DNA from: Candidatus Bathyarchaeota archaeon B26-2
Lineage (GTDB): Archaea; Thermoproteota; Bathyarchaeia; Bathyarchaeales; B26-1
Assembly (NCBI GenBank): GCA_001593935.1
Contig: LUCE01000002.1
Location: 1,290-65,289, forward strand
Direction: 5' to 3'
Length of the DNA: 64,000 bases
Position numbers and translations under genes: made by a program. Positions 49,158 through 54,326 of this stretch are shown piece by piece. The notes beneath the pieces were generated by a model, which searched no databases, was not told the origin of the DNA, and saw only the letters and a list, made by a program, of their open reading frames with translations. How positions within the stretch are numbered: position 1 is the stretch's first letter; each line of letters opens with the position of its first letter.

Positions 49158-51089
49158 TTGAGAGAGGTGGTCGTTGGAATAATCGGCTGTGGAACGGTTG
49201 CGGAGTCTATACATCTCCCTGCTCTGAAGATGATCTCTGAGATTGAGATTGGAGCTCTAGCGGACATAGATGAGAGGAGAGCCTCACACCTCCTGGAAAA
49301 GTTCCACTTAGAGGACGCCTCGGTCCACAGAGATTACCGGGATCTCCTGAAGAACCCGGAGATCGAGGCGGTCTGGGTTCTAACCCCTCCGAGGTTCCAC
49401 GCCGAGATCTCTCTCGAGGCCCTGAAGAACGGGAAGCACGTCCTCGTCGAGAAGCCTTTGGCCACTAGCCTTGAGGAAGCCGAGGTCATTAGGGAGACCC
49501 TGAGGAAACATGGCGCCGGGGGATGTGGAGACCGACCCAAGGGACCGGTTCTCATGCCCGCTCACAACTTCGCCTTCACCCCATGCTTCGAAAGGGCGCT
49601 CGATCTTCTAGAAGGAGACGCTTTAGGTGACATTAAGGAGATTAGGGGACGAACGGTCTCGAACCTCGCCTTCTACAAGGCTAGGACAGACTTCAGGCTT
49701 CAAGCTAAGGGCGGAGTGATCGAGGACCAGATGCCCCACATCCTATACTTGGCTAGGAGGGTTGGAGGCCCGTTTCGGAGGGTTCTCTCGCTTGAGCCGT
49801 ATGGTGAGGGGAGACCCCTGATTGAGGACGCTCGGGTGAGGGCTGAGCTCGGAGATGGGGTGAAGGCGGACCTCTCAGCTGCTTGGTCAGGGTTTATTCC
49901 AACCTTTAAGCTCACGGTCGTTGGAGATGAAGGTCGGCTAGAGATGGATCTCCTCAGGAGACCCTACAACCTCACGGTCTTTAGAGGTGACGAACGTGAG
50001 GAGATTAAGTTGGGTCGGGGCTTCCTCCAGTATCTAGACGTCTTGAGGGGTAGACATCCGTCTTATCTTAGGGAGGACCTCCACTTCGTCGAGGTTGTGA
50101 GGGGTGAGGCTGAGCAGAGGATAACCGTAGACGAAGGCGTCGAGGTTGTGAGGGTTCTGGACGAGATTATGGAGGTCCTTGAGAGCCGACCTAAACCCTC
50201 AGTTGGGATGGAGAGAGTTGCTCTGGTCCGTGTTGAGGACGGGGACGTGAAGAGGGCGATTCGCGAGTCCATAGCCCTCCTCGGAGGCCTAAACTTTAAG
50301 AGTGGGTCTCACGTAATCGTCAAGCCTAACATCTGTTTCTGGAAGAACACCGAGAACATGGTTATAACGGACCCGAGGATACTTAGGGCTGTTCTGGAGA
50401 TTCTGGATGAGAGAACAGACCAGATCACCGTCGTCGAGTCTGATAACAACTCCGGCCCAGCCGAGAAGCGGGCTGAGAAGACCGGGGTTCTAGAGGTGGT
50501 CGAGGAGTGTGGAGCCGAGTTCCTGAACCTAAGCCATGACGAGTACGTTGAACACGAGGTCGCCGGCTTCAAGATAAGGCTTCCAAAGACCGTTCTGGAC
50601 GCGGACTACCTCGTTAACCTCCCGAAGATGAAGACCTGTAATGTAGCCAACACGTTGATCACGGTAGCGATGAAGAATATGTTCGGGGTCATAGCCGACA
50701 AGAAGAAGGTCCGACTCCACAAGAGGCTGGTTGATGTTCTCCTATACGTGAATAGGACTATCCGCCAAGACCTCATCATAGTCGACGGCGTAACGGCCAT
50801 GGAGGGACTCGGCCCAATATGGGGAACCCCGGTCCAGCTCAACCTCATAGTCGCCGGAAGAAACCCAGCGACCGTTGATACGCTCTGCTGCCACATCATG
50901 GGGATAAATCCCTACTCGGTTGAGGTTCTCTGGAGAGCCTACAAATCCGGCATGAGCGAGATAAATATAGAGCGTATAGAGGTCCTCGGCGAGAAGGTTG
51001 GAGATGTGAAGAGAAGATTCTCATACCCAATCTTCCTAAAGAAGAACATCACAGGGGCAATAAGGACGGCTCTAAAGACGTACCTATAA
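49158..51089 (+). CDS. fusion protein: Gfo/Idh/MocA oxidoreductase (N) + DUF362 (C)
   Basis: N-terminal half has GIIGCGTVAESIH and LVEKPLA. The C-terminal ~290 aa have VIVKPNICF...ITDPRIL...LPKMKTCNVA...MKNMFG...IVDGVTAMEGLGP, the DUF362 pattern. Confidence 0.75.
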   Translation: MREVVVGIIGCGTVAESIHLPALKMISEIEIGALADIDERRASHLLEKFHLEDASVHRDYRDLLKNPEIEAVWVLTPPRFHAEISLEALKNGKHVLVEKPLATSLEEAEVIRETLRKHGAGGCGDRPKGPVLMPAHNFAFTPCFERALDLLEGDALGDIKEIRGRTVSNLAFYKARTDFRLQAKGGVIEDQMPHILYLARRVGGPFRRVLSLEPYGEGRPLIEDARVRAELGDGVKADLSAAWSGFIPTFKLTVVGDEGRLEMDLLRRPYNLTVFRGDEREEIKLGRGFLQYLDVLRGRHPSYLREDLHFVEVVRGEAEQRITVDEGVEVVRVLDEIMEVLESRPKPSVGMERVALVRVEDGDVKRAIRESIALLGGLNFKSGSHVIVKPNICFWKNTENMVITDPRILRAVLEILDERTDQITVVESDNNSGPAEKRAEKTGVLEVVEECGAEFLNLSHDEYVEHEVAGFKIRLPKTVLDADYLVNLPKMKTCNVANTLITVAMKNMFGVIADKKKVRLHKRLVDVLLYVNRTIRQDLIIVDGVTAMEGLGPIWGTPVQLNLIVAGRNPATVDTLCCHIMGINPYSVEVLWRAYKSGMSEINIERIEVLGEKVGDVKRRFSYPIFLKKNITGAIRTALKTYL

Positions 51090-51157: not shown

Positions 51158-51553
51158 CTACTGGTCTGAGATTCTCTCCAGCTTGAAGATCACCGGTCTA
51201 TAACCGTCTGTGCAGCACGTAACGAAGAGTCTAGGTCCTCCTCGAGCCATCCCCCAAACGATCTTCTGTATATCGGCCCACGCCCAACCGCAGAAGCCCT
51301 TGGGCATAACCCAAGGTGTGTCCTTAGACACTGTAAACTCTTGCCCCTCCTTGAACTTCTGGCATGGTCTCCAGCCTGAGGGGTTCTCCGTATACTTCTC
51401 CACCAAATCCTTGTGGAAGAGCCTCTTTACCACCGTGATCTTGACCTCGTAACGTTCTGGAAACAATTCCACAAACCACCATAATTCAAGTATTCCAAGT
51501 ATTCCAATCCCTACTTTAATATTTCTTCTTGACACCTCCGGGGGAAGGCTCAC
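51158..51553 (-). CDS. TIGR04076-like small Cys-rich protein (start uncertain)
   Basis: VKITVVKRLFHKDLVEKY...PCQKFKEGQEF...PKGFCGWAWADI...CCTDGYRPVIFKLERI matches my recollection of TIGR04076. The ORF carries an extra ~33-aa hydrophobic leader, and GTG or TTG alternative starts sit near FVELF. Confidence 0.6.
   Translation of the reverse strand: MSLPPEVSRRNIKVGIGILGILELWWFVELFPERYEVKITVVKRLFHKDLVEKYTENPSGWRPCQKFKEGQEFTVSKDTPWVMPKGFCGWAWADIQKIVWGMARGGPRLFVTCCTDGYRPVIFKLERISDQ
51487..51507. repeat. 9-bp tandem repeat CAAGTATTC x2.3
   Basis: CAAGTATTC CAAGTATTC CAA read directly. In the ORF frame it encodes GIL-GIL. Confidence 0.8.
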
Positions 51554-51571: not shown

Positions 51572-53578
51572 TTAAACTGAACGACCGGTTAGGTTCTCCT
51601 CCAAGAGGTTGAGTATTTCTCCGGCCAGTTCGGCTTTCTTCCCATCGAAGTCTCGAACTCTACCTCTCTGGTCTATTAGGTACGCCTTATGGCATTCGCC
51701 TCTTATCTCTGATAGGTCGTTGGCGACGATTATTGCGGCTTTGACTCTCTCAAGTTCGTCTTGAGCTCTCCTTATGAGCTCCTCTCTGGAGACCTTATAC
51801 TCAAGTTTGAAGCCGACTATCCTCACGTCCGGATATCTCCTAGAGACCTCGCCTATAACCTTGACCGTCGGGATGAGGTTAACGGTCCACTCGGCTCCGG
51901 ACTTAACCTTCTCTGCTTCGTATGTGGCGGGCTTGAAGTCGAGTATGGCGGCTGAGAAGACCGCAACTTCGTATCTTCCGGTCTCGAGCTCAGTCAGGGC
52001 CGCCTTCAGCATCTCCTCAACCGTGTAGACCTTCACGACCGGTATATACTCAGGGAATCTCACAGTCCCAGGCCCATATATGACCTTGACCTCGCAGCCT
52101 CTCTGGAACGCCTCCTTCGCTAGCCAGTACCCGATCTTACCCGAAGCCTTGTTGGATACGTACCTAACCGGGTCTATGTCGTAGCGTGTCGGGCCGGTGA
52201 GGATGAGGATTCCTCTACCCTTCAAGATGCTTGTTGAGAGGCTTCTGATGACGTAATCTACCGCCTTCTCCACAGAGGCGACCTTGGCGGCCCCCTCACT
52301 TATCCTCGGCTCAACTAAGGTTACGCCGAGCCTCTTAAGCCTCTTTAATGCCTCCCTAAAAGCCGCGTTCATATAGAGCCTCAAGTTCATGGCTGGAGCT
52401 ACAACGAGACGAGTCGGACTGGTCGAAGCGCAGAGCGTCGTAACAGCATTATCAGCTACACCCCGGGCAACTTTACAAACCGTATTCAACGTCGCAGGAT
52501 AGACCAAGACAAGGTCGTAATCCACCAAGTGTTCAGCCGCACCTGTGAGCCCCAAGACGACCGGCCTCCCAGTCGCCCACTCCATAACCTTCGGGCTTAC
52601 GCCATACTCAACGGCGGCCGAGGTCATGTAACATTGTACCTCAGCGCCGTGTCTCCTGAGCCATCTAGCCAGCTTGGGAGCTTCAATCGTTGCGACACTC
52701 CCAGTTAGGCAGAGTGCCACCCTCTTACCGGAGAGCTTCATGCTCTCCTTGGAGAGTTCGATAACTGGAGCAGCGGCGTCCACAGTGGTGTAGGCGGCGT
52801 CTCCACCACCTTTAGGGAGTATGTGACTGTAATCTAGGAACCGGCCTTCACAGGGGTTTCCCCGGCAGTAGAGGATTCTAGAGTCTCCCAGATTCTTGGC
52901 TACAGCCATGATAGTTGAGGAAGACATGTACCAACCGACCTCCCCATGGTAGCAGATCGAACCCCTACCACGCTCCTCTCCATGGTCGGAGGCCACGCGT
53001 CTCAACTCCTCGAGAACTCCTTTCAGCCCTTTAGGTTCAATCTGGGAGGCGAGCTCTACCGCTCGCTTTCTTCTCATCTCCACGTACTTCATGAGGTCTT
53101 CGGGAACCCGCTCAGTTCTGACCCATTCTTTAACAGTCAGGTTTGTGAAGATGTGTACGCCGGGGTTTAGAGGCGTAATCTCTACTCTCTCATCTTTGAG
53201 TATATGGAACGCCTCCCTCGAATCGGCTAGGAGAAAGTTTCCCCTCCTGTACCCTTTGGTGAGCTCCATCTCCATGTAATCTGCAGCCTCAGAAGCCTTA
53301 GAGAAGTGGGTTAAGACATCCATCAGGAGGAGGCCCCTACTCCTATAGGCTTTTAAGGGTCCATCTGTATGCTGGTCGGTAGCAGCGGCGAAGAGACCTA
53401 CTTTGTTAAAGCCTACCCACGTTCCCTTGGAGGATGCGTCCACCGGATGATAAGCCTCGAACCTACCTTTAGATACTCTAGGCGGCTCCTCGAATGACCC
53501 TGTTCTGGCGTAGCGGTTATGCATCGCCACAACGTGGAAGCCTTCTAGAAGCCGATACAACATTATCAGAGTGCACAT
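51572..53578 (-). CDS. coaBC: NRDE/TANGO2-like domain fused to phosphopantothenoylcysteine decarboxylase/phosphopantothenate-cysteine ligase (CoaBC)
   Basis: Residues 1 to ~255 start MC and contain KGTWVGFNKVGLFAAATD and RGNFLLADS (NRDE-like). Residues ~280-450 have KRVALCLTGSVA, PATLNT and APAMN (CoaC). Residues ~455-668 have GPTRYDIDPVRYVSNKASGK and SAAILDF (CoaB). Confidence 0.8.
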   Translation of the reverse strand: MCTLIMLYRLLEGFHVVAMHNRYARTGSFEEPPRVSKGRFEAYHPVDASSKGTWVGFNKVGLFAAATDQHTDGPLKAYRSRGLLLMDVLTHFSKASEAADYMEMELTKGYRRGNFLLADSREAFHILKDERVEITPLNPGVHIFTNLTVKEWVRTERVPEDLMKYVEMRRKRAVELASQIEPKGLKGVLEELRRVASDHGEERGRGSICYHGEVGWYMSSSTIMAVAKNLGDSRILYCRGNPCEGRFLDYSHILPKGGGDAAYTTVDAAAPVIELSKESMKLSGKRVALCLTGSVATIEAPKLARWLRRHGAEVQCYMTSAAVEYGVSPKVMEWATGRPVVLGLTGAAEHLVDYDLVLVYPATLNTVCKVARGVADNAVTTLCASTSPTRLVVAPAMNLRLYMNAAFREALKRLKRLGVTLVEPRISEGAAKVASVEKAVDYVIRSLSTSILKGRGILILTGPTRYDIDPVRYVSNKASGKIGYWLAKEAFQRGCEVKVIYGPGTVRFPEYIPVVKVYTVEEMLKAALTELETGRYEVAVFSAAILDFKPATYEAEKVKSGAEWTVNLIPTVKVIGEVSRRYPDVRIVGFKLEYKVSREELIRRAQDELERVKAAIIVANDLSEIRGECHKAYLIDQRGRVRDFDGKKAELAGEILNLLEENLTGRSV

Positions 53579-53634: not shown

Positions 53635-54216
53635 CTACTCCAAGTCTGAGAGGATTACCCTCTTAACTCCCTTCCGGGTCATCTCCTCGACCGCTCTCTC
53701 ACTGTCTCCAGGTTGAACGTCGACTCCTTGTATGGCGTCTAATAGCAGGAAGGTCTCGAAGCCGTATCTAAGCGCGTCGAGAACTGTGCTCTTAACACAG
53801 TAGTCGGTTGCTAGCCCCCCAACGAAGACTCGTTTAACGCCTCGACTCTTCAAGTTCTCCTTGAGGTTTGTGCCCTCAAACCCTGAGTAGGCCTCCTTGT
53901 CGCGTTCTGTTGCCTTCGAGATTACTATGGTGTCGTCTGGAAGCTTAAGGTCGGGGTGAAACTCGGCGCCTCGTGTCCCTCGTATACAGTGAGGCGGCCA
54001 GTCGCCTCCATACTCCCTAAACGACTTGTGGTCTGGTGGATGCCAATCCCTCGTCGCGTATATGGGCGCCCCAACCTTCCTGAATCTCTCTATATACTCG
54101 TTCAGAACCGGGACGACCTCGTCACCCTTTGGGACGGGTAGGGCTCCTCCAGGACAGAAGTCCCTCTGAACGTCTACAACGATTAAGGCGTCTCCCTTAC
54201 CGATCTTAACCTTCAT
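53635..54216 (-). CDS. pncA: nicotinamidase/pyrazinamidase
   Basis: ALIVVDVQRDFCPGGALPV, TRDWHP and ATDYCV parallel P. horikoshii PncA. The ATG at 54216 is preceded by GGAGG. Confidence 0.85.
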   Translation of the reverse strand: MKVKIGKGDALIVVDVQRDFCPGGALPVPKGDEVVPVLNEYIERFRKVGAPIYATRDWHPPDHKSFREYGGDWPPHCIRGTRGAEFHPDLKLPDDTIVISKATERDKEAYSGFEGTNLKENLKSRGVKRVFVGGLATDYCVKSTVLDALRYGFETFLLLDAIQGVDVQPGDSERAVEEMTRKGVKRVILSDLE

Positions 54217-54326
54217 AGCCAACCTCCCAACGGCTCCGTCTCTTGAGATACACATCATAAAGGGAAGGAGGCAAAAAATAAACCTATAGTGAGAGTGAAT
54301 CGGCTCTAAGCCGAGAAGGAATCCCT

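Follow-up and report, generated by a model that had tools for sequence, protein, structure and literature searches.

Here we describe a 668-aa open reading frame (ORF) in Candidatus Bathyarchaeota archaeon B26-2, in which a TANGO2/NRDE-family domain of cysteine N-terminal-nucleophile (Cys-Ntn) fold is joined in frame to a complete CoaBC of coenzyme A (CoA) synthesis; the stretch analysed, 64,000 nt of contig LUCE01000002.1 (assembly GCA_001593935.1, positions 1,290 to 65,289 of the forward strand), is referred to below as the window. CoaBC joins cysteine to 4'-phosphopantothenate and then decarboxylates the product, yielding 4'-phosphopantetheine. We hold it moderately probable (roughly 0.6) that the NRDE module acts with CoaBC in maintaining the pool of CoA and 4'-phosphopantetheine, by a chemistry that we infer. 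In children, TANGO2 deficiency is a lethal metabolic disease, and the function of TANGO2 is disputed between heme chaperone, acyl-CoA binder and Ntn hydrolase; the archaeal fusion and an independent bacterial operon tie the TANGO2 family to one defined enzyme, CoaBC, which narrows the search for a substrate to pantetheine-bearing molecules.

Judged by profile and modelled fold, residues 1-255 are a genuine TANGO2/NRDE-family domain of Cys-Ntn fold, which is what an earlier reading of the letters by a model (the sequence-only reading) had proposed from the motifs KGTWVG, LFAAATD and RGNFLLADS; all three are in the translation and align with the human TANGO2 motifs as claimed. The Pfam models for TANGO2, Flavoprotein and DFP, put forward there as a check, all match the protein, TANGO2 (PF05742) at 42.2 bits (cut-off 22.6, E=1.4e-10) with the hidden Markov model (HMM) aligned to aa 42-170 only. 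Searching with aa 1-279 retrieved 55 relatives, for the most part "NRDE family" proteins that stand alone, measure about 257 aa and come from Bathyarchaeia, Nezhaarchaeota and other groups, and a profile of 46 N-domain homologues found the human TANGO2 chains 8sv7, 9bwa and 9n1s in the PDB at E about 1.5e-11. The AlphaFold2 (AF2) model of aa 1-262 (predicted local distance difference test, pLDDT, 94; predicted template-modelling score, pTM, 0.92) was compared with the PDB by Foldseek: the top four matches are human TANGO2 (8sv7/9bwa; E about 1e-12, template-modelling score, TM, 0.65-0.68), the fifth is CV2077 (3gvz), the next is acyl-CoA:isopenicillin N acyltransferase (2x1d, E 6e-10), and bile-salt hydrolases (BSH), NAAA and acid ceramidase come later. 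The suggested comparison of a predicted structure with Ntn-hydrolase folds thus returns TANGO2 and then Cys-Ntn enzymes, the kin that PMC13044924 and PMC12359130 consider for the human protein.

Human TANGO2 (8SV7, 9BWA) is the best profile and fold match and shares with the window domain a Met-Cys start as well as a fold of alpha-beta-beta-alpha type, about 255 aa long, yet the two are only about 15-17% identical, and a covalent link to CoaBC, such as the window domain has, is not known from eukaryotic or other characterised TANGO2 proteins. The Cys-Ntn enzymes (2X1D, bile salt hydrolase/penicillin V acylase, NAAA and acid ceramidase) have the same fold (Foldseek E 1e-7 to 6e-10, TM about 0.55-0.7) and, in the alignment, an N-terminal Cys, a nearby Arg and an Asn at the oxyanion position; unlike them, the window protein has no autoproteolytic propeptide, so that only Met1 would be removed, and lacks their conserved Asp. 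The stand-alone NRDE proteins (HtpA/SO0126, CV2077 3GVZ and those of Fidelibacterota) belong to the same family at 225-260 aa and carry the canonical NRDE motif.

Methionine aminopeptidase is expected to cleave Met ahead of Cys, which would expose Cys2 as the putative nucleophile. Among the 46 fused and stand-alone homologues, Cys2, Thr3, Arg22, Asp47, Ser80, Arg81 and Gly82 are invariant, as are Tyr110, His199, Cys209, His211, Cys243 and others. We aligned the domain with the human TANGO2 sequence, cross-checked against residue numbers in PMC13044924 and the PDB chain length. Window residues correspond to human ones as Cys2 to Cys2, Asn21/Arg22 to Asn25/Arg26, Arg81 to Arg88, Tyr110 to Tyr116 and Asn146 to Asn157, and the positions of human Asp27/Glu28 hold Tyr23/Ala24 (for the roles of human N25, R26 and D27, see PMC13044924). 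From the catalytic set, Cys2 and Arg22 are present, Asn146 is the aligned counterpart of the oxyanion N157, the Asp is absent, and the K166 equivalent falls in a gapped region. The window motif reads H-N-R-Y-A rather than N-R-D-E near residue 25, Tyr23 standing for the Asp and Ala24 for the Glu, a departure that the sequence-only reading had overlooked. This HNRY variant is common to the whole archaeal clade that holds the fusions, while distant archaeal and bacterial members retain NRDE, and on this distribution it is a deviation of the subfamily, compatible with homology to the NRDE family. Separately, the set His199/Cys209/His211/Cys243 (about 52850-52984), invariant in the 46 archaeal NRDE proteins and kept in the aligned bacterial ones, characterises the prokaryotic members. 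Only Cys209 has a human TANGO2 counterpart in the alignment (Cys228), and the four residues may form a structural cluster or bind a metal.

The C-terminal part is a complete CoaBC, as had been supposed for residues ~280-668. The NCBIfam equivalog TIGR00521 scores 288.2 bits (cut-off 219.7) over aa 283-658, positions 2-390 of 392 in the model and thus both halves, and Pfam places Flavoprotein (PF02441, 75 bits) at aa 285-445 and DFP (PF04127, 144.8 bits) at aa 452-624. The motifs first noticed there, PATLNT, APAMN, GPTRYDIDPVRYVSNKASGK and AAILDF, are all in the translation, and both halves align with Mycobacterium smegmatis CoaBC (6tgv). With the bifunctional CoaBC/Dfp enzymes (M. smegmatis 6TGV; archaeal forms of about 390-420 aa, close to the 400 aa assumed earlier for stand-alone relatives) the window protein shares the domain order, the CoaC motifs EH, with its His, and PAMN, and in CoaB the motifs SNxxSGK and AAxxDF; it differs in carrying a 280-residue N-terminal extension with a second, unrelated domain. 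Across the fused family there is no variation at Glu349, His350, Met397, Gly480, Ala543, Ala544 or Asp547, and almost none at Asn398. The substrate clamp of CoaC is of a short EGxAK type without Cys. We considered this loss of the clamp Cys as an oddity of the fusion and rejected it, since unfused archaeal CoaBCs have the same short clamp; the CoaBC module is thus of ordinary archaeal type. In the full-length AF2 model (pLDDT 90.8, pTM 0.90) only residues 257-272 are disordered. They lie in a linker that begins GGGDAAYTTVDAAAPV and exceeds that of most orthologues by about 13 residues (29 residues, against usually about 14-18 in the fused family by the same measure).

The fusion is not confined to B26-2. 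A whole-protein search returned 41 fused clusters (90% identity; NCBI, JGI, ENA and Logan) of 602-681 aa with PF05742, PF02441 and PF04127, 42-100% identical to the window protein. A scan for the N-domain, covering one genome per GTDB species with each locus checked for coaBC within 4 kb, located the HNRY-type domain at 24 loci, one per species; it is fused to CoaBC in 9 (L010, L011, L012, L017, L018, L020, L021, L022, L048) and encoded directly upstream of a separate coaBC in 3 (L013, L031, L034), with the N gene damaged in L031 and L034. Other adjacent pairs overlap by 14 nt (L007) or are separated by 35 nt (L009). In a neighbour-joining tree of N-domains the fused, adjacent and stand-alone forms are interspersed, which argues that the fusion is old, with later fissions and relocations. 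On these comparisons we read it as an old arrangement confined to Bathyarchaeia and allied Thermoproteota that alternates with adjacent genes in relatives. The survey of relatives for fusion or adjacency that the sequence-only reading had called for thus yielded 41 fused clusters, 9 fused GTDB species and further adjacent pairs, and a recent gene merger, which that reading had entertained, is contradicted by divergence to 42% identity across several Thermoproteota lineages.

Mean pairwise identity within the fused family is 0.48 for the N-domain, 0.63 for CoaC and 0.55 for CoaB, against 0.35 for the linker: the three-domain protein is genuine and maintained by selection, with each domain under constraint. 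The NRDE domain is N-terminal in every fusion and its gene upstream in every operon seen, the only arrangement that leaves the alpha-amine of Cys2 free for Ntn chemistry. When a profile of the fused family was run against 1.84 billion representatives, the best 150 included just two fused ones, P0081 and the partial P0013, the 50% clustering of these representatives being such that it may mask fused members behind shorter ones.

Several variants of the architecture occur. At L005 (2673-3584), a 303-aa NRDE protein (P0001), 64% identical to the window N-domain, runs on into the first ~35 CoaC residues and then stops, as would be expected of a chimeric contig or of a former fusion that has been truncated. 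One metagenome-assembled genome (MAG) carries the gene split on a 24-kb contig into RJS77909.1 (237 aa) and RJS77910.1 (457 aa), in a cluster of >90% identity whose other members are fused at 656-664 aa; this split is probably a frameshift or sequencing error and not a true fission. In P0109 (585 aa, NCBI), Aldolase_II (PF00596) is combined with Flavoprotein and DFP, and several representatives of 500-607 aa match the fused-family profile over the CoaBC part only, which suggests that CoaBC may be a recurrent fusion partner.

A second linkage of the two functions was found in bacteria. The GTDB scan also recovered distant Fidelibacterota/Marinimicrobia NRDE genes (23-28% identity) with the canonical NRDE motif; coaBC lies immediately downstream in 5 of the 5 loci scanned, and it is the next gene at each of three more divergent members of the clade (47-57% identity to the first). 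The order NRDE then coaBC therefore holds at all eight distinct loci (47-100% NRDE identity), where the flanking genes differ; at the junctions for which the ends of the genes were read, the two are 1-4 nt apart or overlap by 4 nt. At L045 the order is nadA-nadC-NRDE-coaBC-DUF2520-panD-panB, an NRDE gene embedded, by its annotated neighbours, in a cofactor and pantothenate/CoA cluster. The bacterial NRDEs form their own clade in the N-domain tree, grouped with haloarchaeal stand-alone genes, and the CoaBC of L053 has a long bacterial-type clamp as against the short archaeal one of the window; the separate clade and the different clamp together indicate that the gene pair was not simply transferred as a unit between domains. 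Clustering of neighbouring ORFs at 20 fused or adjacent loci left the NRDE-CoaBC linkage as the only one common to all. The Fidelibacterota NRDE is coaBC-linked like the fusion, yet a separate protein, and among about 70 NRDE clusters of the Fidelibacterota clade there is no NRDE-CoaBC fusion. The Rosetta-stone argument, first raised from a single ORF, is strengthened by the fusion family, the archaeal adjacency and this independent bacterial adjacency.

The tie of TANGO2 to CoA, acyl-CoA and pantothenate that the earlier reading took from the literature is real (PMC11867700, PMC12359130, PMC12782551). The NRDE pocket of human TANGO2 binds acyl-CoA (PMC11867700); a Cys-Ntn hydrolase is what the crystal structures point to (PMC13044924, PMC12359130), and docking into a crystal structure places Cys2 beside the amide of pantothenate or beside the thioester (PMC12359130). 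TANGO2 deficiency is rescued by pantothenate (PMC12782551), and a 2024 poster reported that fasted hrg-9/10 worms lose 65% of their CoA and proposed pantetheine hydrolysis (PMC11268012). A fusion or neighbourhood of TANGO2 and CoaBC is not mentioned in the full texts that we searched and read, including the 2025-2026 structure papers, a coverage that leaves out most subscription journals; the architecture is thus probably new as a description, the proteins themselves being already public and, in the records seen, named CoaBC or PPC decarboxylase.

In the mechanism that we propose, the NRDE domain would bind the pantetheine end of a CoA-family molecule and Cys2 would attack an acyl bond there. 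Action at the pantetheine end is suggested by the nearest characterised fold relative outside the family, which uses acyl-CoA, and by the acyl-CoA binding, Cys2 docking, pantothenate rescue and worm CoA loss described above. Two reactions are candidates: (a) cleavage of the thioester of acyl-CoA or S-acyl-4'-phosphopantetheine, which would release the free thiol cofactor, or (b) cleavage of the pantothenoyl-cysteamine amide in spent or damaged (phospho)pantetheine or CoA, which would give 4'-phosphopantothenate, the substrate of CoaB, to which CoaBC could then add fresh cysteamine. That the conserved partner is specifically CoaBC makes amide cleavage and repair attractive; the data fit a thioesterase-type reaction just as well, with a hint in its favour from the menA-menE-NRDE gene order of haloarchaea. 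The fullest form of (b), a Cys-Ntn amidase working on spent, oxidised or dead-end-acylated 4'-phosphopantetheine or CoA and passing its product to the fused CoaB-CoaC in a thiol-end repair cycle, is a speculation that we rate as quite unlikely; if true, such a cycle in human TANGO2 would explain the fasting CoA loss and the rescue by vitamin B5, and also why the partner is CoaBC and not PanK, PPAT or DPCK. The prokaryotic proteins, soluble and probably thermostable and including a natural enzyme-partner chimera, are suited to testing (a) and (b).

Several observations weigh against a joint role of the NRDE module and CoaBC in maintaining the pool. The HNRY-type domain stands alone in 12 of the 24 GTDB species, with no coaBC within 4 kb, and most bacterial and haloarchaeal NRDE genes do not adjoin coaBC, so the function is not obligatorily tied to CoaBC; the linkage has been seen in two lineages only. 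For the prokaryotic NRDE members we infer the chemistry entirely. Finally, the fused clade has Tyr at the place of human Asp27; in characterised Cys-Ntn hydrolases this Asp holds the amino group of the nucleophile in position, and catalysis may thus be changed or lost precisely in those proteins that are fused.

It is this missing Asp that keeps a non-catalytic, CoA-sensing role as the chief rival, which we nonetheless regard as unlikely. Here the N-domain would bind CoA or acyl-CoA and allosterically throttle the attached CoaBC, a feedback of the kind exerted by PanK in bacteria and eukaryotes. Mycobacterial CoaB is inhibited by CoA thioesters, and the very short linkers of most orthologues, with a full-length pTM of 0.90, suggest a fixed inter-domain arrangement. 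The change from NRDE to NRY and the acyl-CoA binding of human TANGO2, shown without catalysis (PMC11867700), would fit such a sensor as well. It would explain less readily why fused, split and stand-alone members all keep Cys2-Thr3 and a set of polar residues unchanged, which exceeds the needs of binding, why the HNRY-type domain occurs far from coaBC in the 12 species above, or why the bacterial form is a separate protein with its NRDE motif intact. A heme-trafficking protein like HtpA of Shewanella (SO0126), which has been assigned to heme delivery and not to CoA (PMC10470608), or HRG-9 of C. elegans, whose proximity to CoaBC would have nothing to do with CoA, is highly improbable: Tyr110, aligned with human Tyr116, the proposed heme ligand (PMC10470608), is invariant, but the heme role has been challenged by experiment and crystallography (PMC12782551, PMC13044924) and gives no rationale for a conserved fusion to coaBC or an operon with coaBC and panBD.

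The remaining alternatives concern the gene itself. A neutral read-through merger, or an assembly or frameshift artefact, would deprive the architecture of functional meaning; loss of a stop codon does fuse neighbouring genes, and some relatives are split, among them the pair RJS77909.1 and RJS77910.1 within its >90%-identity cluster. Both forms of this idea are largely refuted already and have, to our mind, next to no chance of being right, given an identical or near-identical ORF in independent assemblies, about 40 fused clusters reaching down to 42% identity with a constrained N-domain, and a bacterial adjacency that arose independently with the other type of CoaBC while flanking genes were not conserved. 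The sequence-only reading had also pointed to an internal ATG behind AAGGAG exactly where a stand-alone CoaBC would begin, and from it to the possibility that the locus makes a fused and an unfused product. Both ATG and hexamer exist, and split relatives begin CoaBC within a few codons of the Met280 position. Met280 is, however, unique among 34 fused proteins: it is absent from 33 of 33 aligned fused orthologues, which have G, S, E, D and others instead, Gly standing there even in an orthologue of 81% identity, and the hexamer is made of Lys-Glu codons only 3 nt from the ATG. Two products are accordingly very unlikely; on the alignment there is no sign of selection for a second, unfused one in B26-2, and the idea is not supported. 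As a side observation, the non-conserved Met280 sits just past the linker insertion of the window protein. The domain boundaries and sites discussed here are collected in Table 1.

Table 1. Coordinates, within the window, of the fusion ORF and its domains, sites and candidate promoter element.
Feature	Position	Strand	Basis or remark
Whole ORF: TANGO2/NRDE domain, linker, CoaC and CoaB	51572..53578	-	668 aa, stop codon included
N-terminal TANGO2/NRDE-family domain, aa 1-255, alpha-beta-beta-alpha Cys-Ntn fold	52814..53578	-	Pfam, profile, AF2, Foldseek
Cys2 codon, putative N-terminal nucleophile, exposed after Met1 removal	53573..53575	-	Invariant in 46 homologues
HNRY (aa 20-23) in place of the NRDE motif	53510..53521	-	Asn and Arg kept; Asp replaced by Tyr23
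Inter-domain linker, aa 256-279, predicted disordered	52742..52813	-	pLDDT <50 for aa 257-272
Internal ATG (Met280), 52741-52739, with AAGGAG, 52750-52745	52739..52750	-	Present, not conserved
CoaC, phosphopantothenoylcysteine decarboxylase, Flavoprotein domain, aa 285-445	52244..52726	-	Pfam; retains EH and PAMN
CoaB, phosphopantothenate-cysteine ligase, DFP domain, aa 452-668	51575..52225	-	Pfam/NCBIfam
Candidate archaeal TATA box TTTTTAA	53604..53610	-	26-32 nt 5' of the ATG, read from the sequence

The gene model is well anchored. The translation begins MCTLIM, and the protein is identical to KYH42109.1 of B26-2, recorded as "phosphopantothenoylcysteine decarboxylase"; near-identical in-frame versions are present in JGI, ENA and Logan assemblies, and the same ORF across independent assemblies excludes a missed stop or frameshift in that of B26-2. 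TTTTTAA is a possible TATA box, judging by its letters and spacing, from which a leaderless or short-leader mRNA beginning at Met-Cys might arise; several orthologous loci have comparable A/T-rich boxes at about -25 to -35.

Start sites in the databases are less secure. Gene calls of 8 of the 41 full-length fused clusters (P0056, P0070, P0075, P0076, P0079, P0084, P0093, P0095) begin downstream and lose the conserved Met-Cys N-terminus. For P0070, the DNA of its contig (L012) does encode MCTLI, and the 652-aa ENA/JGI call of the window gene itself starts at GTG codon 17 (codons 1-16 being 53531-53578) without MCTLI. In the records seen, fused proteins are named only CoaBC or PPC decarboxylase, which amounts to a systematic annotation gap: proteins of roughly 650 aa under plain CoaBC/PPC decarboxylase names, some of them with their N-termini cut off.

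Around the fusion gene, an isochorismatase/PncA gene (53635..54258(-)) lies 56 nt upstream and a TIGR04076 gene (51158..51553) 18 nt downstream, gaps that agree with those given earlier. As functional context these neighbours fared worse: pncA is upstream only in close relatives (L001, L010, L011), TIGR04076 is in 0 of the fetched loci, and we rejected the arrangement as informative and treat it as lineage synteny. No further CoA genes were found within about 10 kb, where neighbours include GH38, PyrI/PyrB, radical SAM proteins, an ECF S-component, a class II (D/K/N) tRNA synthetase, PFK and a glycogen-debranching-type enzyme. A 643-aa ORF in the window (49158-51089(+)) joins a GFO/IDH/MocA-type NAD oxidoreductase (aa 6-339) to DUF362 (aa 386-579), and partial relatives of it lie near NRDE loci L017 and L025.

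NAD genes stand directly upstream of NRDE-coaBC in both domains of life: pncA in the window (53635-54258(-)) as well as three close relatives, and either nadA-nadC or nadC alone at three loci of Fidelibacterota (L045 2142-3976, L053 2112-3958, L055 3071-3943). This proximity may be a coincidence or reflect a general cofactor cluster. A ~150-aa GAF protein (Pfam) is directly upstream of NRDE-coaBC at L067 (4482-4940), L069 (4545-4994) and L070 (2871-3320), and a ~150-aa protein, linked only by the similarity of its two copies to each other, precedes nadA/nadC at L053 (1598-2050) and L055 (2601-3050). Among haloarchaea, Natrialba spp. (L033, L035, L046) and Haloarchaeobius (L037) carry a canonical stand-alone NRDE gene just downstream of menA (347.7 bits on NF004751, cut-off 264) and a menE-like o-succinylbenzoate-CoA ligase (TIGR01923, cut-off 330: 332 bits in L037, 311 bits in L033). 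From this gene order, seen in two genera only, the haloarchaeal NRDE could provide the DHNA-CoA thioesterase step of menaquinone synthesis.

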